From Escherichia coli (GTDB lineage Bacteria > Pseudomonadota > Gammaproteobacteria > Enterobacterales > Enterobacteriaceae), in assembly GCF_044324875.1 (NCBI RefSeq), contig NZ_CP172185.1: a stretch of DNA of 64,000 bases. One strand, written 5' to 3'. Below are positions 1-64,000 of the stretch, in pieces. Positions within the stretch are counted from its first letter, which is position 1; each line of letters starts with the position of its first letter. The notes under the pieces are model-generated. The model did no database searches and was not told where the DNA came from. It was given only the letters and a program-made list of their open reading frames with translations. The translations under genes and the position numbers were made by a program.

Positions 1-1777
1 AGGGCTGATCAACAAAATCGCTGCCTTCGTCGCTGACAATCAGGAATCCACCGGGAGCCGGACTGTTTAGTGATTGTGCCGCTCGCGCCGTTTCATGCGT
101 GATAAACGGCGCGGTGGAGGTTGCCACCAGGTTATCCAGTGATTCCGCACTCACCGGGCGTAATAACACATTCACGCCATCGAGTTTCCCGGCGTTGGCG
201 CGTTTTACCAGCGCGTCCCAGTCTTTACTGTTGCCGAGATTGACCAGCGCATTTTTCAGTCGCACACAGTCATCTTTGGCATAACACAGATCCGCTGTCT
301 TCAGTACTATGTCGCCAAAATCATCAAGCAATACCATGCCGGATTTTTGAATTGCTGAACGTAATGAGGCGCTGACGCGAGATTCATCTTCCGGTTTAGG
401 GTGCAGCTGGCGATTAACTGCTTCGGTCAATGCCGTCGCTTTGTTGACCAATTCAGATTCTGGTAATGGCAATGAGCGGGCGTCATTCCAGATGATCTGC
501 GAGCAGTCAAACGGTAAAAAAGGTGAGTTGGTTTTCGCGCTCCAGGTACCGGAAGTGCGAATATTACACATTCCCGTACCGCTAATACGCAATGTATCGC
601 CAACCCGCACGCCAGCGTCAGCCAGTTGTTTCACGCTGGTGGCTTCAATGGTCTGCGCGCCTTTCATCCACGAGAGGGTGAATTTCAGCGGCATATCCAG
701 CGGGATCCAGAATAACAGCATAAACAGCACCAGTAGCGAGCCCGCAGCGATAATCGTACTGCGCAGCCAGTGCTGTAACGGAAAGTTTTTTACTTCATCA
801 TGGAGCGAAAGATATCGCCCCTGACGCACTACGTGGCGGTCGAGATAGATATCGATATCGGTTTGTTGACCGAGATCCTGAGCAATGTATGGCTGCCAGT
901 GTGCGGGGTAGACCAGGTCGATAATACCGAGTGAAATATTGTTGATCTGTTCCTGATCGTTTTCGCCAAACAATCCCCAACGACGGGGTGTACCGCGCAG
1001 ACAATGAATTTCCCGCAGGGAGGATTTTGCCGGGGGCGCGAATAGCCCCCACAGACCTGCGCCCAGCAGCAGTAACGCGCCGCCTGCCAGCCACGGAACA
1101 AATACATCCGGGGTAATCAGGCAGAAAAAGAACATTAGGAATGAGGCGACAATCAGCAACGCTTCACGCAGCCCGCGCGGACGACTTAGCGCATACTCTT
1201 CGTGCGTTTCTTTGCGAATATTGAGTAGCTCGATTTGCTCACTCTCTTCCCCGCGAATCGACGCCTGTGTTGACGGAACAGGTTGCAAGGCATAGCCGCG
1301 AGTTTCCTGCATGTACTCCTGCAGCGTATGACCGTTGAGTGAAATAACCAGCGGCAGCGAATCGGTATGAATCAGTTCAACGGTATTCTCATCGTTGATG
1401 TACTGCTCCCAGAAAGGGGGCAGGTGGACTTCTACCGAATCGAGGTAGTAACGCCATTTATTCGGATCGTCGGTAGAGATGCCGTAACGCGTGATAGCGT
1501 GTGTCAGCATCATGACGTTGTTGCTTTCGGCATTCAGCGCCAGAGAGATCGGTGCCGCGCTGGCTCCCGTTGGGCCAGGCACCTGTAATACCTGCGTCAG
1601 GCTCTCAAGATAATTTTCAACGGCGCTATGTTCTTCAGGTGTGAGTTTACGCGTTTGCGCATCCGCGAAGGCGTTGGTCCAGGGCAGCTGACGCCGTCTG
1701 GATCGCACTTTTATCAGCCATCCCGCAAGTAGTGAGCAGGCCAGCAAAGCAGCTAAAAAAATCACAATGGTGCTCAT
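1..1777 (-). CDS. igaA: IgaA (YrfF) inner-membrane regulator of the Rcs phosphorelay; partial, C-terminal end cut by the window edge
   Basis: Minus-strand frame is open from 1777 to the window start; reverse complement at 1775-1777 gives ATG followed by MSTIVIFL, the IgaA N-terminus as I recall it. Not in the ORF track because the stop lies outside the window. Confidence 0.85.
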   Translation of the reverse strand, partial: MSTIVIFLAALLACSLLAGWLIKVRSRRRQLPWTNAFADAQTRKLTPEEHSAVENYLESLTQVLQVPGPTGASAAPISLALNAESNNVMMLTHAITRYGISTDDPNKWRYYLDSVEVHLPPFWEQYINDENTVELIHTDSLPLVISLNGHTLQEYMQETRGYALQPVPSTQASIRGEESEQIELLNIRKETHEEYALSRPRGLREALLIVASFLMFFFCLITPDVFVPWLAGGALLLLGAGLWGLFAPPAKSSLREIHCLRGTPRRWGLFGENDQEQINNISLGIIDLVYPAHWQPYIAQDLGQQTDIDIYLDRHVVRQGRYLSLHDEVKNFPLQHWLRSTIIAAGSLLVLFMLLFWIPLDMPLKFTLSWMKGAQTIEATSVKQLADAGVRVGDTLRISGTGMCNIRTSGTWSAKTNSPFLPFDCSQIIWNDARSLPLPESELVNKATALTEAVNRQLHPKPEDESRVSASLRSAIQKSGMVLLDDFGDIVLKTADLCYAKDDCVRLKNALVNLGNSKDWDALVKRANAGKLDGVNVLLRPVSAESLDNLVATSTAPFITHETARAAQSLNSPAPGGFLIVSDEGSDFVDQP

Positions 1778-2096
1778 GCTTTCCCCATCTTACTTAGTCT
1801 GTCAGGCGTGGTCAGTCGCACCGGACACAAAACATGATTCTGCGGTTGGCTATCGGCAAGCGTGGAGTTTAACTTGAGCATCATTAAGCACATCACAGTA
1901 ACCGCTGATCATAGCAAACCCTCTGAAGGCGGAATATCAGCAAATTCCTGGAGTTATTTCAACCTATTGACTTTTAATTTGATTTGAGGACGATTATTTA
2001 TTAAGTTACATAAATGTAAATAACATGCAATTCACATTGCCGAAAGCGTGTCCTATATCGCACAATAACCGCTGATTTCACAGCATAGATCCCACG

Positions 2097-2657
2097 ATGA
2101 GCAAATCATTACAAAAACCCACCATTCTGAATGTTGAAACTGTAGCCCGTTCCCGACTGTTTACCGTCGAAAGCGTGGATCTGGAGTTCAGCAATGGCGT
2201 GCGGCGTGTTTATGAACGAATGCGTCCAACCAACCGGGAAGCAGTGATGATTGTGCCGATTGTGGACGATCACCTGATCCTGATCCGCGAATACGCAGTG
2301 GGAACTGAATCCTACGAATTAGGTTTTTCGAAAGGATTAATTGATCCGGGTGAAAGCGTCTTCGAAGCCGCGAACCGCGAGCTAAAAGAAGAGGTGGGAT
2401 TTGGTGCGAACGATCTGACTTTTTTGAAGAAGCTCAGCATGGCACCGTCTTACTTTTCCAGCAAAATGAATATCGTGGTAGCGCAAGATCTCTACCCGGA
2501 ATCGCTGGAAGGCGATGAGCCAGAGCCGCTACCACAGGTGCGCTGGCCGCTGGCGCATATGATGGATTTGCTGGAAGACCCTGACTTCAACGAAGCGCGT
2601 AATGTCAGCGCGCTGTTCCTCGTGCGCGAATGGTTGAAAGGGCAGGGGCGGTTGTAA
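2097..2657 (+). CDS. nudE: ADP-sugar diphosphatase NudE (Nudix hydrolase)
   Basis: 186-aa ORF; Nudix-type segment RELKEEVGF; conserved position next to mrcA. Confidence 0.9.
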   Translation: MSKSLQKPTILNVETVARSRLFTVESVDLEFSNGVRRVYERMRPTNREAVMIVPIVDDHLILIREYAVGTESYELGFSKGLIDPGESVFEAANRELKEEVGFGANDLTFLKKLSMAPSYFSSKMNIVVAQDLYPESLEGDEPEPLPQVRWPLAHMMDLLEDPDFNEARNVSALFLVREWLKGQGRL

Positions 2658-2798
2658 ATGCGTGAAGTTTGCCTGATGCATAATGCTTATCAGGCCTGTG
2701 CGGCTCCTGCAATATATTGATTTTTCTAGATGTTGCTAGACGGGTAAAGTGTTCACGCCGTATCCGGTATAAACAAAGTGCACTTTGTCAGCAAACTT

Positions 2799-2823
2799 AA
2801 AAAGGCGCTGAAGCGCCTTTTTA
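2799..2823. terminator. Bidirectional rho-independent terminator between convergent nudE and mrcA
   Basis: GC hairpin aggcgc-tgaa-gcgcct flanked by an A-run upstream and a T-run downstream, immediately outside both stop codons. Confidence 0.6.
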
Positions 2824-2824
2824 A

Positions 2825-5377
2825 TCAGAACAATTCCTGTGCCTCGCCATTATCGATAATGGTCGTTCCCACCTCGTGCACCGCCTGTTGTGTCGGCTGC
2901 GTACCTTCGATGAAATACTCTTCGCGGCTGTTGCCACCATTAGCTAACTGCCCGGTGCTGCGATCGATATTCACCGTCACAATACCCGGCGGCGGCGTCA
3001 GCGGCTGCTCCGGCACACCTTCAAGAACGGCTTTCATATAAGCGTCCCATGCAGGCTGGGCACTCTTGGCACCGCCTTCGTAACCTGAGATCTGATCTTT
3101 AATCGCTCCGGAAGCCGTTGTATGACCGAGATTACGACGGTGATCATCAAAGCCAATCCAGACCGAGGTCACAACGCCCGGACCGTAACCCGAAAACCAC
3201 GCATCTTTCGAACTGTTAGTGGTACCGGTTTTCCCGCCGATATCGCGACGCTGCAAATCACGACCTGCACGCCAGCCGGTACCCTGCCAGCCTGGCTCAC
3301 CAAAGATATTGGTGTTCAAAGCACTCTTAATCAGGAATGCCAGCGGAGTGTTGATGACGTGCGGTGCGTACTCCTGCGCGCCAGTCTTCGCCACTAACGC
3401 CTGATTTGCCTGCTCCAGCTGCGGCATTGGCACAGAAACATTCTGCTGCTCGCGGGAGATAGCGACATCTTCAACATCGTTATTTTCCAGCACGTTCGAT
3501 TTCTGCGTATCACCGTAAATTACCGGAATATCGCATTCCGGGCAGGCTACTTTCGGTTTCGCTTCGAAAATCACGCCGCCCTGATCGTTTTCAATTTTGC
3601 TGATAAACCACGGGTCCACCAGGAAGCCGCCGTTCGCCATGACCGCGTAGCCGCGCGCCACCTGCATTGGGGTGAATGACGCTGAACCCAGCGCCAGCGA
3701 TTCGGTGTGGACAATGTTTTGCGCCGGGAAGCCGAAGCGTTGCAGATATTCTGCAGCGTAGTCGACGCCCATCGCCCGCATTGCGCGTACCATCACCACG
3801 TTTTTCGACTGGCCCAGTCCCTGACGTAAGCGAATTGGACCAGCATATTGTGGCGGCGAGTTTTTCGGCTGCCAGTCAGAACCGGCACCTGCGTCCCAGC
3901 GAGAAATTGGCACATCGTTCAACATACTTGCCAGCGTCAGACCTTTATCCATCGCCGCGGTGTAGAGGAACGGTTTGATGTTGGAACCCACCTGACGCAG
4001 TGCCTGGGTGGCGCGGTTAAACTTGCTCTGATTGAAATCAAAGCCACCGACCAGCGCCATAACGGCACCGTTTTGCGGATTGATCGACACCAGCGCCGAG
4101 TTCACTTCCGGCACTTGTGCCAGCCACCAAGCATCGCCAACCTGACGAACCCAGATTTGCTGACCCGTTTGCAGAACATCGGTCACTTTACGCGGCGTCG
4201 GTCCCTGCTGAGTATCCGAACGGTAAGGACGCGCCCAGCGAACGCCTTCCATACTCAATGCGACGGTCGACCCGTCCGCCAGCATCGCCGTCGCTTCCTG
4301 AGGATTGGCGCTGGTGACTGCGGCAGGTAGCAGAGGACCATAGGTCGGCAGCGCCTTCAACGTATCGGTAATCTTGTTGTTATCCCACGCCGACTCGCCC
4401 ACTTTCCACAGCACATTTGCCGGGCCGCGATAGCCGTGGCGCATGTCGTAGTCCAGCACGTTATTACGTACCGCCTGCTGTGCGGCCTGCTGCACTTTGC
4501 GGGTGATGGTGGTGTAAATGCGATAACCGTCTTCATAGGCACTTTCGCCATAACGGTTATACATCTCCTGGCGCACCATTTCGCTCAGGTACGGCGCAGA
4601 GAAAGCAATCTCCGGCGCGTGATAGTTAGCGTTAATCGCCTCAGTGCGTGTCTGATCGAACTGTTGCTGGGTGATATACCCTTCATCCAGCATCCGCGAC
4701 AGTACGACGTTACGCCGCGCGACGGCACGATCCATTGAGTAGAGCGGATTAAAGGTGGAAGGCGCTTTCGGCAGCCCGGCTATCACCGCCATTTCGTTCA
4801 GCGTCAGTTGGTCGACCGTTTTACCGAAATAGACTTGTGCCGCAGCACCGACACCATAGGCGCGGTAACCGAGGTAAATCTTGTTCAGATAAAGCTCGAG
4901 GATCTCGTCTTTCGTCAGCAATTGTTCAATGCGAATCGCGAGGAAGACTTCCTTAATCTTACGCATCAGCGTGCGTTCTGGACTGAGGAAGAAGTTTCTC
5001 GCCAGCTGCTGGGTAATGGTACTCGCCCCTTGTGACGCGTGGCCGGAGAACAGCGCCACACTTGCCGCACGGAAGATCCCCACCGGGTCAACGCCGTGAT
5101 GCTCGTAGAAGCGGCTGTCTTCCGTCGCGATAAAGGCTTTCACCATCTCCGGCGGGATTTGATCCAACGTAACCGGAATACGACGTTTCTCACCGTATTG
5201 AGCGATCAGCTCGCCATCGGCGCTGTAAATCTGCATCGGAATTTGCAGGCGAACATCTTTTAATGTCGCCACATCCGGCAGTTGTGGCTCGATGTAGCGG
5301 TATAGGCCATAAATCGAGCCTGCTCCCAGCAGAATGCAACAGACTGCAAGGATCAAAAAATACTTTACGAACTTCAC
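2825..5377 (-). CDS. mrcA: Penicillin-binding protein 1A (bifunctional glycosyltransferase/transpeptidase)
   Basis: 858-aa ORF in track; likely true start is the GTG at 5377 (VKFVKYFLIL...), giving 850 aa; N-terminal transmembrane anchor, glycosyltransferase and transpeptidase regions recognisable. Confidence 0.93.
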   Translation of the reverse strand: MKFVKYFLILAVCCILLGAGSIYGLYRYIEPQLPDVATLKDVRLQIPMQIYSADGELIAQYGEKRRIPVTLDQIPPEMVKAFIATEDSRFYEHHGVDPVGIFRAASVALFSGHASQGASTITQQLARNFFLSPERTLMRKIKEVFLAIRIEQLLTKDEILELYLNKIYLGYRAYGVGAAAQVYFGKTVDQLTLNEMAVIAGLPKAPSTFNPLYSMDRAVARRNVVLSRMLDEGYITQQQFDQTRTEAINANYHAPEIAFSAPYLSEMVRQEMYNRYGESAYEDGYRIYTTITRKVQQAAQQAVRNNVLDYDMRHGYRGPANVLWKVGESAWDNNKITDTLKALPTYGPLLPAAVTSANPQEATAMLADGSTVALSMEGVRWARPYRSDTQQGPTPRKVTDVLQTGQQIWVRQVGDAWWLAQVPEVNSALVSINPQNGAVMALVGGFDFNQSKFNRATQALRQVGSNIKPFLYTAAMDKGLTLASMLNDVPISRWDAGAGSDWQPKNSPPQYAGPIRLRQGLGQSKNVVMVRAMRAMGVDYAAEYLQRFGFPAQNIVHTESLALGSASFTPMQVARGYAVMANGGFLVDPWFISKIENDQGGVIFEAKPKVACPECDIPVIYGDTQKSNVLENNDVEDVAISREQQNVSVPMPQLEQANQALVAKTGAQEYAPHVINTPLAFLIKSALNTNIFGEPGWQGTGWRAGRDLQRRDIGGKTGTTNSSKDAWFSGYGPGVVTSVWIGFDDHRRNLGHTTASGAIKDQISGYEGGAKSAQPAWDAYMKAVLEGVPEQPLTPPPGIVTVNIDRSTGQLANGGNSREEYFIEGTQPTQQAVHEVGTTIIDNGEAQELF

Positions 5378-7633: not shown

Positions 7634-8783
7634 CGTTCCGGTAGCTCAGGTGTTGCAGGCGCTGGCTGAACAGGAGAAGTTGAACCTGGTCGTGTCGCCA
7701 GACGTCAGCGGTACGGTGTCGTTACATCTAACAGATGTTCCCTGGAAGCAGGCACTACAAACTGTAGTAAAAAGCGCCGGACTGATAACGCGGCAGGAAG
7801 GCAACATTCTCTCGGTGCATTCCGTTGCCTGGCAGAATGACAATATCGCCCGTCAGGAGGCGGAGCAGGCGCGGGCGCAGGCAAATCTGCCGCTGGAAAA
7901 TCGCAATATTACTCTGCAATACGCCGACGCCGGAGAGCTGGCGAAAGCGGGGGAGAAGCTACTGAGTGCCAAAGGGAGTATGACCGTCGATAAACGCACC
8001 AATCGCCTTTTGCTGCGAGATAACAAAGCGGCGTTAAGCGCGCTTGAACAGTGGGTAGCGCAAATGGATCTGCCGGTCGGGCAGGTTGAGCTGTCGGCGC
8101 ATATTGTCACCATTAATGAAAAAAGTTTGCGTGAGTTAGGCGTGAAATGGACGTTGGCTGATGCGCAACAAGCTGGTGGCGTTGGGCAAGTCACCACGCT
8201 TGGCAGCGACCTCTCCGTAGCGACGGCGACAACGCATGTCGGTTTTAACATTGGACGCATCAACGGACGTTTACTGGATCTTGAGCTTTCCGCGCTCGAA
8301 CAAAAACAGCAGCTGGATATTATCGCCAGTCCGCGTCTGCTTGCCTCACATCTTCAGCCTGCCAGCATTAAACAGGGGAGCGAAATTCCATATCAGGTTT
8401 CCAGCGGGGAAAGTGGCGCGACGTCGGTGGAATTTAAAGAGGCCGTCCTGGGGATGGAAGTTACGCCCACGGTGTTACAAAAAGGTCGCATCCGGCTGAA
8501 ATTACACATCAGCCAGAACGTTCCGGGGCAGGTGCTACAGCAGGCCGATGGCGAAGTGTTGGCGATTGATAAGCAGGAGATCGAAACGCAGGTCGAGGTC
8601 AAAAGCGGAGAAACGTTGGCGCTGGGCGGCATTTTTACCCGTAAAAATAAATCGGGTCAGGATAGCGTACCGTTGCTTGGCGACATTCCCTGGTTCGGGC
8701 AATTATTTCGTCATGACGGAAAAGAAGATGAACGACGCGAGTTAGTGGTGTTTATCACGCCACGACTGGTTTCCAGTGAGTAA
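7545..8783 (+). CDS. hofQ: HofQ secretin (DNA-uptake / type IV pilus outer-membrane channel)
   Basis: 412-aa ORF with signal peptide and secretin C-terminal domain (..VPLLGDIPWFGQLFR..). Confidence 0.9.
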   Translation: MKQWIAALLLMLIPGVQAAKPQKVTLMVDDVPVAQVLQALAEQEKLNLVVSPDVSGTVSLHLTDVPWKQALQTVVKSAGLITRQEGNILSVHSVAWQNDNIARQEAEQARAQANLPLENRNITLQYADAGELAKAGEKLLSAKGSMTVDKRTNRLLLRDNKAALSALEQWVAQMDLPVGQVELSAHIVTINEKSLRELGVKWTLADAQQAGGVGQVTTLGSDLSVATATTHVGFNIGRINGRLLDLELSALEQKQQLDIIASPRLLASHLQPASIKQGSEIPYQVSSGESGATSVEFKEAVLGMEVTPTVLQKGRIRLKLHISQNVPGQVLQQADGEVLAIDKQEIETQVEVKSGETLALGGIFTRKNKSGQDSVPLLGDIPWFGQLFRHDGKEDERRELVVFITPRLVSSE

Positions 8784-55762: not shown

Positions 55763-56050
55763 ATGCTGCATACATTACATCGTTCACCCTGGCTGACGGA
55801 TTTTGCTGCGCTGCTGCGTCTGCTCAGTGAAGGCGACGAACTGCTGTTATTGCAAGATGGCGTAACTGCCGCAGTTGACGGTAACCGCTACCTTGAAAGT
55901 CTGCGTAATGCCCCCATTAAGGTCTATGCCCTGAACGAAGACCTTATTGCCCGCGGTTTGACTGGTCAAATTTCGAACGATATCATTCTCATTGACTATA
56001 CTGATTTCGTCAGACTTACGGTTAAGCACTCCAGCCAGATGGCCTGGTGA
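55763..56050 (+). CDS. tusB: Sulfurtransferase complex subunit TusB
   Basis: 95-aa ORF. Confidence 0.9.
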
Positions 56051-56076
56051 TGGCGGGATCGTTGTATATTTCTTGA

Positions 56077-56550
<474 letters not shown>

Positions 56551-56631
56551 TGGTTCTCCGTTAAGTAAGGCCAAACGTTTTAACTTAAATGTCAAACTAA
56601 ACTCGTAGAGTTTTGGACAATCCTGAATTAA

Positions 56632-57117
<486 letters not shown>

Positions 57118-57201
57118 TCCCTTCGGAGTTTTAGTCACCAGGCGGGCGCTTCCAGTAAGCAGCCCGCTTTGGGCTACTTAAATTGAACGCCTAAAAGATA
57201 A

Positions 57202-59328
<2,127 letters not shown>

Positions 59329-59341
59329 GCCTAAGGGTTAA

Positions 59342-60583
<1,242 letters not shown>

Positions 60584-60607
60584 TTACACGTTAATTAGTT
60601 TCGAATT

Positions 60608-60634
60608 AAAAAGGGCGCTTCGGCGCCCTTTTTG
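60608..60634 (+). terminator. Rho-independent terminator of the str operon (after tufA)
   Basis: aagggcgc-ttcg-gcgccctt hairpin followed by ttt. Confidence 0.8.
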
Positions 60635-60765
60635 CTGCCCGTAATTTGAGCTCGAAATATTTAGTCGCAATTTCACTCGCTGAACTATGGCGCAAATAAA
60701 ACTGTGCTATTGTAATCATAACCATTCTCATTTACACTTTGCGCAGAATTTGAACGGGAGCAATC

Positions 60766-60960
60766 ATGTACGTTTGTTTGTGTAATGGTGTAAGTGACAA
60801 AAAAATTCGCCAGGCAGTCCGTCAGTTTCATCCGCAATCTTTCCAACAATTGCGTAAGTTTATTCCTGTGGGAAATCAATGCGGTAAGTGCATTCGCGCC
60901 GCGCGCGAAGTGATGCAGGACGAGTTGATGCAGATGCCAGAATTTAAAGAGATTGCCTGA
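60766..60960 (+). CDS. bfd: Bacterioferritin-associated ferredoxin
   Basis: 64-aa ORF with the four-Cys 2Fe-2S pattern (C4, C6, C39, C42). Confidence 0.88.
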   Translation: MYVCLCNGVSDKKIRQAVRQFHPQSFQQLRKFIPVGNQCGKCIRAAREVMQDELMQMPEFKEIA

Positions 60961-61032
60961 AGCCCACGCTTATTTTTTGACATCCCGCTAGCCCCATCTA
61001 CGCTCTAATAGTGGAAGCGGAGGGACTATAAA

Positions 61033-61509
61033 ATGAAAGGTGATGTTAAAATCATAAATTATCTCAATAAACTATTGGGAAATGAGCTTGTCGCAATCAA
61101 TCAGTATTTTCTCCATGCCCGGATGTTTAAAAACTGGGGCCTGATGCGTCTTAATGACGTCGAATACCATGAATCTATCGATGAGATGAAACACGCTGAT
61201 AAATATATCGAGCGTATTTTGTTTTTAGAAGGAATCCCCAACTTACAGGATTTAGGCAAACTGGGGATTGGTGAAGATGTCGAGGAGATGCTGCAATCCG
61301 ACCTGCGATTAGAACTGGAAGGCGCGAAGGATCTCCGTGAGGCTATCGCGTATGCCGACAGCGTTCATGACTATGTTAGCCGTGATATGATGATCGAGAT
61401 CCTTGCCGATGAAGAAGGTCATATTGACTGGCTCGAAACTGAGTTGGATCTCATCGGTAAAATCGGTCTACAAAATTACCTGCAATCACAAATAAAAGTT
61501 AAAGATTAA
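61033..61509 (+). CDS. bfr: Bacterioferritin
   Basis: 158-aa ORF; ferritin-like four-helix bundle. Confidence 0.93.
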
Positions 61510-61973
61510 CGGCCTGCCAGCAAACTATCCCAGCCTACAACGAAACCCGCAGCCGCCAGAAATGGACCAAACGGCAGCGGGTTTTTTAATGACTCTTTTC
61601 CTCTCATAAGCAAACCAATAACTACGGCTCCGCAAGCGAATGAGGCAGCAAGGAAAACCAGTCGTGGCAAGAAGGTCCATGTATGCCAGGCACCAAGGGC
61701 GGCGAGAAACTTCACATCACCATAGCCTAATCCTTCTTTATGGCGCAGTATGCGATACCCCCAGTAAATGACAGCGAATGTGCCGTAACCAATAATCGCC
61801 CCCCATAACGCATCGGCTAAACCGTCAGGATTACAAACTTGATAGAACAAAAGACCTGACCAGAGTAACGGGCAGGTAAACCTGTCAGGTAACAAGCCAT
61901 GCTTTGCATCCCAGAAAAAAAGTAGGGTTGATAAACAAGCGTACAAAATCAGAAAGGGAAGGGCAGCGTCCAT
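61506..61973 (-). CDS. Short prepilin (leader) peptidase-like membrane protein, peptidase domain only (HopD/GspO-like)
   Basis: 155-aa ORF with the two aspartate motifs typical of A24 prepilin peptidases (LLPDRF and [18 protein letters not shown]); no N-terminal methyltransferase region; convergent 4-nt overlap with bfr. Confidence 0.7.
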
Positions 61974-62146
61974 AAAATATCCTCTGTAATTGGAGTATCA
62001 CCATCGAATAACTCCGGATGCTCAGCAACAGAGAAATCGCTGATTTGTTAACCTGGTTCCGGTGAAAAACGCTATCTTCACAACCTTACAAATTTCGTGG
62101 AATGCAGCTCGCAATCTGCGCGTTGCGATTAATTTCTACCCGATGC

Positions 62147-62174
62147 TTGCGTCAGGCTCAGATTTGCGTATAAT
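62147..62174 (+). promoter_or_regulatory. Candidate S10 operon promoter (-35 ttgcgt, 16-bp spacer, -10 tataat)
   Basis: Consensus-like -10 at 62169-62174 with a plausible -35 at 62147-62152, about 180 bp upstream of rpsJ. Confidence 0.55.
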
Positions 62175-62663
<489 letters not shown>

Positions 62664-62683
62664 TCAGGTCATTGAGCGATTGA

Positions 62684-64000
<1,317 letters not shown>

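Follow-up and report, generated by a model that had tools for sequence, protein, structure and literature searches.

The interval between the str and S10 operons in the E. coli window analysed here, a stretch of 64,000 nucleotides, carries a haplotype that differs from that of K-12 by an allelic replacement of the whole segment, an event wider than the presence or absence of chiA. Measured from the tufA terminator to the S10 promoter, the variable segment spans 1,532 bp in the window and 16,639 bp in K-12. Because the bfd and bfr alleles are themselves only 77-80% identical in DNA to those of K-12, the whole segment, and not chiA alone, has been replaced.

We consider it very likely that the window keeps the native str-S10 arrangement and that the K-12 block is a foreign replacement of the native segment; both the direction and the mechanism of the replacement are what we infer from the comparisons below. 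The native gap would have held the tufA terminator, the bfd promoter, bfd, bfr, a convergent hopD and the S10 promoter. A 16.6-kb chiA-bfd-bfr-gspO..C-gspAB block from an enterobacterium outside the Escherichia-Salmonella-Citrobacter group would then have taken the place of the native 1.5-kb segment, with the tufA and S10 flanks, both near-invariant, as the sites of homologous recombination, and both forms would have coexisted in E. coli ever since. More tentatively, and with somewhat more doubt than confidence, we suggest that E. coli has long been polymorphic for two haplotypes, native bfd-bfr-hopD and a foreign chiA-bfd-bfr-gsp that came with iron-storage genes and a bfd promoter of its own and with a part of the S10 promoter.

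Gene content and boundaries of the interval

The sequence-only reading had started from the observation that bfd follows tufA directly, and its description of the gap was accurate. The stop of tufA (60583) and the start of bfd (60766) are separated by exactly 182 bp (60584-60765) without an ORF, and the gap contains, as had been proposed, the tufA terminator (hairpin and T-run at 60607-60634) and the bfd promoter, in a 60-bp block before bfd that is conserved in Salmonella. The order that had been given for K-12, with chiA between tufA and bfd, agrees with the annotation of MG1655, which runs rpsJ-gspB-gspA-gspC..gspO-bfr-bfd-chiA-tufA. In the window chiA is absent from this position, and tblastn with ChiA found no ChiA-like coding sequence (E<1) in the whole 64 kb. 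The gsp genes, which had also been reported missing beyond bfr, are indeed not there: neither gspC-M nor gspAB was found between bfr and rpsJ among the ORFs or by tblastn, in which GspA, B, C, D, E, L and M detected nothing at the locus. The sole content of the bfr-to-rpsJ interval is a gene for a 155-aa protein of the Peptidase_A24 family and a 378-bp spacer (Table 1). The stop codons of bfr and this gene overlap by 4 bp (61506-61509, within ATTAAC), and no terminator-like hairpin was found between the two convergent genes.

Far from the str-S10 locus, positions 7902-8780 encode a secretin homologue that resembles GspD (30% identity to the K-12 protein over 334 aa) and which by its map position is probably hofQ of hofMNOPQ and not part of T2SS-alpha.

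Table 1. Features of the window from the end of the str operon to the start of the S10 operon
Feature	Position	Strand	Remarks
fusA	57214-59328	+	Upstream of tufA
tufA	59399-60583	+	Last gene of the str operon; stop TAA 60581-60583; 99.7% DNA and 100% protein identity to K-12
Predicted intrinsic terminator of tufA/str operon	60607-60634	+	12-bp stem, UUCG loop, U-run
Left junction	60635-60636		K-12 similarity (99.1%) stops at 60635, directly past the terminator T-run
Short-haplotype-specific spacer	60636-60708	+	No K-12 match; aligns loosely with Salmonella
bfd promoter block	60701-60765	+	Near-identical to Salmonella
bfd, bacterioferritin-associated ferredoxin	60766-60960	+	NCBIfam equivalog NF007803, 148 bits against a cut-off of 75
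bfr, bacterioferritin	61033-61509	+	TIGR00754, 267 bits against a cut-off of 125.6
hopD-type orphan prepilin peptidase, 155 aa	61506-61973	-	One complete Peptidase_A24 domain; convergent with bfr
Short-haplotype-specific spacer 5' of the S10 operon	61974-62167	+	Holds the S10 -35 and the Salmonella-type promoter spacer
Right junction: S10 -10 (TATAAT, 62169-62174) and S10 leader	62168-62351	+	K-12-identical onward, 99.9% to 64000
rpsJ	62352-62663	+	First gene of the S10 operon; 100% identical to K-12

In a blastn alignment with K-12, the window is 99.1% identical as far as 60635 and 99.9% identical from 62168 onward; inside these limits, 60709-61493 (bfd-bfr) aligned at 77.1% and 61494-62167 did not align. 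Because the junctions sit at the terminator T-run and at the S10 -10, the variable segment fills the gap between the two operons exactly. Placed in a terminator and a promoter, the replacement junctions lack the hallmarks of a mobile island: no repeats bracket them in the window, and neither an integrase nor an IS is annotated in the 16.6-kb block of K-12. The genes of the str-S10 insert have been described as not associated with mobility (Brandis et al., PMC6735719).

The tufA terminator hairpin is common to the window, K-12, a B2 strain and Salmonella. Its fold (-19 kcal/mol, z = -3.1) was equalled by 2 of 200 shuffled sequences and, as a predicted G+C-rich hairpin with a U-run 3' of the stop codon, it has the features of a Rho-independent terminator. 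A consensus promoter/terminator scan reported neither this terminator nor the bfd promoter; we suspect that the scan counted the A/T runs as part of the stem, at the cost of the T-tail, and direct folding recovered the terminator. Just 5' of it, positions 60601-60611 read TTTCGAATTAAAAAG in the window and TTTTGAATTGAAAAG in K-12, the B2 strain and Salmonella alike, a difference of two substitutions private to the sub-lineage of the window.

Over the final ~60 bp ahead of bfd, window and Salmonella are almost identical. Read by eye, the core promoter of bfd would be a weak sigma-70 promoter with a -35 of TTGTAA (60710-60715), a 17-nt spacer and a -10 of TACACT (60733-60738), and GGGAG (60756-60760) the putative ribosome-binding site. 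A candidate Fur-box-like site at 60711-60729 matches GATAATGATAATCATTATC at 14 of 19 positions, a score of at least 14 that also occurs in 7 of 702 random 182-bp windows drawn from the same sequence, and is identical in Salmonella; the bfd promoter is probably Fur-controlled. At the other end, the S10 -35 (TTGCGT, about 62147-62152) and -10 (TATAAT) are common to both haplotypes and, because the right junction falls at the -10 hexamer, the 16-nt spacer between them is not: it reads CAGGCTCAGATTTGCG in the window, with a near-identical counterpart in Salmonella, and TCGGTGGTTAAGTATG in K-12 and B2. This promoter drives 11 ribosomal-protein genes, and the difference in its spacer could affect their expression. 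A scan of 56000-64000 against Rfam matched no family and did not place the S10 leader by a family model.

Two complementary haplotypes in E. coli

Comparison of the individual genes with K-12 sets the interval apart from its flanks. The bfd gene is 76.9-77.1% identical in DNA (full gene and 192-nt core) and 87.7% in protein, with differences at 51% of third positions, and bfr is 79.2-80.3% identical in DNA and 88.1% in protein, with differences at 42% of third positions. For tufA, fusA and rpsJ the corresponding values are 99.6-100%, 99.9-100% and 0-1%. The K-12 chiA-bfd-bfr-gspC-O/gspAB locus occupies the same str-S10 slot between identical flanks and, like the window, has an A24 peptidase convergent with bfr, but it holds chiA and 14 gsp genes in addition, its peptidase GspO is 225 aa long against 155 aa for the HopD of the window, and its bfd promoter and S10 promoter spacer differ. 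With an identity of more than 95% taken as the mark of the bfd and bfr alleles of long-form genomes, the window, at 77.1% over bfd-bfr, does not belong to this K-12-type group.

We counted both forms in 5,426 complete E. coli genomes. The short-type segment was present at an identity of at least 95% in 2,255 (~42%), 2,251 of them with at least 80% coverage, and 3,160 (~58%) carried the K-12-type bfd-bfr, recognised by a match at 60-90% only. The chiA coding sequence was found in 3,163 of the 5,426 by sensitive blastn, chiA joined to the K-12-type bfd in 3,167 and gspB-E in 3,169. Thus chiA, gsp and the K-12-type bfd-bfr are linked almost one to one, and the short and long forms are complementary. 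Because the chiA count nearly equals that of the K-12-type bfd-bfr, a handful of short-form genomes at most can hold chiA elsewhere, a statement that applies to the population and not to the source genome itself. The earlier suggestion that the window comes from a lineage lacking the chiA-gsp pair is therefore supported, with three refinements: the linked absences of chiA and gsp are shared by several lineages, bfd and bfr differ as well, and in all likelihood it is the K-12 block that was acquired.

Positions 60300-62400 of the window are 100% identical to EAEC 042 and many other complete genomes. O157:H7 carries the same haplotype (96.9% over the haplotype-specific 1.5 kb), and nothing of substance distinguishes either strain from the window here. 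Other short-form genomes include 97-3250, which we take to be an O26 strain; 042, O157:H7 and 97-3250 presumably belong to phylogroups D, E and B1, respectively. The RefSeq annotation of strains with this haplotype shows tuf, bfd, bfr, a prepilin peptidase and rpsJ here. The long form is found in K-12, BL21 and UPEC strains. Its junctions are identical in K-12 and an O6:K2:H1 (B2) strain, which are 97.99% identical over 25 kb, and this suggests that the long form arose once. Divergence within each type is about 3% in both the short and long forms; both are therefore old in E. coli, and the order of events cannot be dated. The G+C contents of the two cassettes (44.8% and 48.8%) did not separate native from foreign.

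ChiA itself is variable in E. coli. A protein search returned many E. coli entries of 799 aa, as opposed to 897 aa in K-12, with 88-89% identity over 86% of the query (P0124-P0181); these seem to form a second class of ChiA alleles in which chitin-binding repeats at the N terminus are fewer. The ChiA entries of Shigella are truncated, at 701 aa. No match in this search was labelled as an Escherichia other than E. coli, which is weak evidence given the sparse taxon names in the results.

Outgroups and the orphan peptidase

The str-S10 insert of Salmonella has been listed as bfd, bfr and hopD (Brandis, Cao & Hughes 2019, PMC6735719). In a Salmonella contig we found the order rpsJ-hopD-bfr-bfd-tufA with a 4-bp overlap of the bfr and hopD stops (4465-4468), and the window has the same layout, with tufA, bfd and bfr on one strand, hopD convergent and then rpsJ. 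The insert of Salmonella enterica resembles that of the window in its genes, their order and orientation and the stop overlap, as well as in the length of the tufA-bfd gap (185 bp against 182 bp), the near-identical 60-bp bfd block and the type of S10 spacer; it differs in sequence, at 88.5% DNA identity for bfd, 84.4% for bfr and 67-68% protein identity for HopD.

A Bfr search of genome contigs provided 80 Enterobacterales loci, none of them from an Escherichia or Salmonella species, and together with K-12 these show four architectures. Xenorhabdus, Pantoea and Erwinia have bfd-bfr only. The bfd-bfr-hopD arrangement of the window occurs in Pluralibacter, Kluyvera, Silvania, Buttiauxella and some Enterobacter and Citrobacter. 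In C. braakii, C. amalonaticus S646, Chimaeribacter and Rahnella, bfd-bfr is joined to gsp without chiA, and chiA-bfd-bfr-gsp is found in K-12, Trabulsiella, E. sichuanensis, Kosakonia oryziphila and the MAG UBA5654. The window Bfr is 92-98% identical in protein to those of Phytobacter, Citrobacter, Enterobacter and Kluyvera, whereas K-12 Bfr reaches only 85-93%.

Two further observations concern individual loci. In four loci of the third architecture (L013, L019, L038 and L069), gsp adjoins bfr and bfd lies directly after tufA, so that the chiA-gsp pairing is not universal outside E. coli. One contig assigned to a Citrobacter MAG (Citrobacter sp. HRGM_Genome_0066, L042) has the order chiA-bfd-bfr-gspO; its Bfd and Bfr match those of K-12 at 100% and its ChiA at 97%, and in all probability the contig is from E. 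coli and was misplaced in that MAG.

The 155-aa peptidase of the window matches Pfam PF01478 (3.8e-22, 79 bits against a cut-off of 26.5) over profile positions 2-103 of 104; no NCBIfam model matched it. Members of the A24 family use two catalytic aspartates, one in the first cytoplasmic loop and one in the GxGD motif, and D22 and G83-Y-G-D86 of the window protein align with the matching residues of GspO. HopD would presumably be active as a prepilin peptidase. No partner pilin or secretion genes were found at the window locus. Possibly an older gsp cluster once occupied the str-S10 site and left the orphan hopD behind.

Its nearest clusters are from E. coli and Shigella (96%), followed by unlabelled sequences (89-90%), Salmonella HopD (67-68%) and Citrobacter (60-66%); identity to residues 79-215 of the 225-aa GspO is about 37-41% (37% in local alignment, 40.6% by tblastn). 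A neighbour-joining tree of the peptidases of 30 loci, drawn without bootstrap, joins the window peptidase to those of Salmonella and Citrobacter in a clade of orphan HopD proteins and puts K-12 GspO in a separate, secretion-linked clade. By sequence and position in this tree, the window peptidase is the orthologue of Salmonella HopD. We rejected its interpretation as a gspO remnant on the low identity to GspO, the complete A24 domain and the HopD clade. An apparent HopD identity of 80-81% in two error-rich E. coli assemblies with fragmented genes (L083 and L085; 95-97%, 43-102 gaps) was discarded, and a third contig (L084) proved to be ordinary E. coli at 99%.

Direction of the replacement

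The window and Salmonella share more in bfd-bfr than either shares with K-12. Against the 88.5/84.4% DNA identity (bfd/bfr) between window and Salmonella, the window and K-12 are 77.1/80.3% identical and K-12 and Salmonella 78.6/81.2%, and differences at first and second codon positions amount to 3% between window and Salmonella and to 8% for both comparisons with K-12. We built neighbour-joining trees on p-distances over 654 nt of bfd-bfr, in which third positions are near saturation, with 200 codon-resampled bootstraps. The window alleles group with those of Salmonella and Citrobacter; the K-12 allele fell inside the window-Salmonella clade in 2 of 200 bootstraps, and window and K-12 alleles came together to the exclusion of Salmonella in one. 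In 190 of 200, K-12 was sister to the chiA- and gsp-bearing UBA5654, an uncultured enterobacterium. K-12 and this MAG are 81.2/82.5% identical in bfd/bfr and, with the closest relative found for the K-12 block at only 81-82%, no donor can be pinpointed. The promoters agree with the genes: the window matches Salmonella in the promoter block before bfd and in the spacer between the S10 -35 and -10, and K-12 does so in neither. A taxon-unlabelled contig (L087) has the layout of the window, and no complete E. coli genome matches it at more than 89.8%, a distance that would be expected of a sister species. In K-12, chiA and gspC-O are silenced by H-NS (PMC5797941), which fits acquired DNA.

The opposite polarity, with the K-12 form native and bfd-bfr-hopD imported from a relative like Salmonella or Citrobacter, is in our view unlikely. 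It would be compatible with the similar internal divergence of both forms (~3%), by which neither is clearly younger, and with the presence of the long form in the O6:K2:H1 strain and the UPEC strains, which we take to be of the early-branching phylogroup B2. However, the 84-90% identity between the window and Salmonella or Citrobacter is at the level of vertical descent and too low for a recent import, and HopD identities are graded, from 96% in E. coli and Shigella through 89-90% in the unlabelled relative to 67% in Salmonella. Native K-12 alleles, moreover, would be expected to lie nearer to Salmonella than an outgroup does, yet 198 of 200 bootstraps put them outside the clade of Escherichia, Salmonella and Citrobacter, and ChiA outside E. 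coli and Shigella reached at most 76%, save for a partial entry at 87% labelled Klebsiella pneumoniae (P0187).

Less probable still is a trans-species polymorphism, in which both haplotypes were present in the ancestor of Escherichia, Salmonella and Citrobacter and were kept without horizontal transfer. Both architectures, with gsp-without-chiA intermediates, do occur patchily inside Citrobacter, Enterobacter and Kosakonia, but such a polymorphism would have had to persist across genus-level splits, the K-12 alleles are sister to a distant MAG and not basal to the clade (190 of 200 bootstraps), and a single recombination event would explain why the junctions of the B2 strain are identical to those of K-12. 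A simple deletion, by which a K-12-like ancestor lost chiA and gspA..gspO (or gspO-rpsJ at once) and was left with bfd, bfr and a truncated gspO, is hardly credible: the 155-aa peptidase has the position and orientation of gspO, and the loss in strain W has been worded as a gspO-rpsJ deletion (PMC3032704), yet bfd and bfr, which would lie between the supposed deletions, are 21-23% divergent in DNA beside flanks at 0-1%, the peptidase is about 37-41% identical to GspO, has its A24 domain in full and clusters with HopD of Salmonella, the spacers hold no chiA or gsp remnants, and the junctions have no flanking repeats.

That chiA and gsp are accessory genes is known from earlier work, and a bfd-bfr-hopD segment as in the window is an ordinary feature, the commoner layout in the Enterobacteriaceae. 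The report on E. coli W placed gspA-O between rpsJ and bfr, found gspA-O in none of the B1 strains it examined and gave W no known T2SS substrate (PMC3032704). A pan-genome association study of mastitis isolates recorded gsp and chiA as linked accessory genes, and bfd and bfr with the same frequencies, 0.812/0.375 (PMC11390585). Both papers cite Francetic et al. (2000) for the export of ChiA by the "cryptic" type II secretion system of K-12, and as cited there this supports the link between chitinase and secretion system that the sequence-only reading had mentioned. In the open-access literature we found no statement that the replacement extends beyond chiA and gsp to bfd and bfr, to the bfd promoter and into the S10 promoter, nor that K-12 is the derived form.

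The published wording of a deletion does not suit genomes that carry the short haplotype. If K-12 is derived at this locus, to describe the window as missing genes relative to K-12 misreads the polarity. K-12 would then express xenologous Bfd and Bfr and transcribe a major ribosomal-protein operon from a promoter that is foreign in part. The two sets of bfd and bfr alleles are ~12% apart in protein, and clustering tools that split them may produce spurious signals of accessory iron-storage genes. Our comparisons indicate that the bfd/bfr signal of the mastitis study reflects divergent alleles that were split into clusters and are linked to chiA-gsp, and not gene gain or loss; such pan-genome hits would be hitch-hiking artefacts of linkage. 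In Tables 2-3 of that study, bfd and bfr are scored as accessory and tied to fitness in mouse mammary glands (PMC11390585).

A further difference lies upstream. The rpsG gene of the window (56647-57117, 471 bp) encodes an S7 of 156 aa, as in 042 and the B2 strain, and that of MG1655 is annotated with 540 bp and 179 aa. We take this C-terminal extension to be a known peculiarity of K-12.
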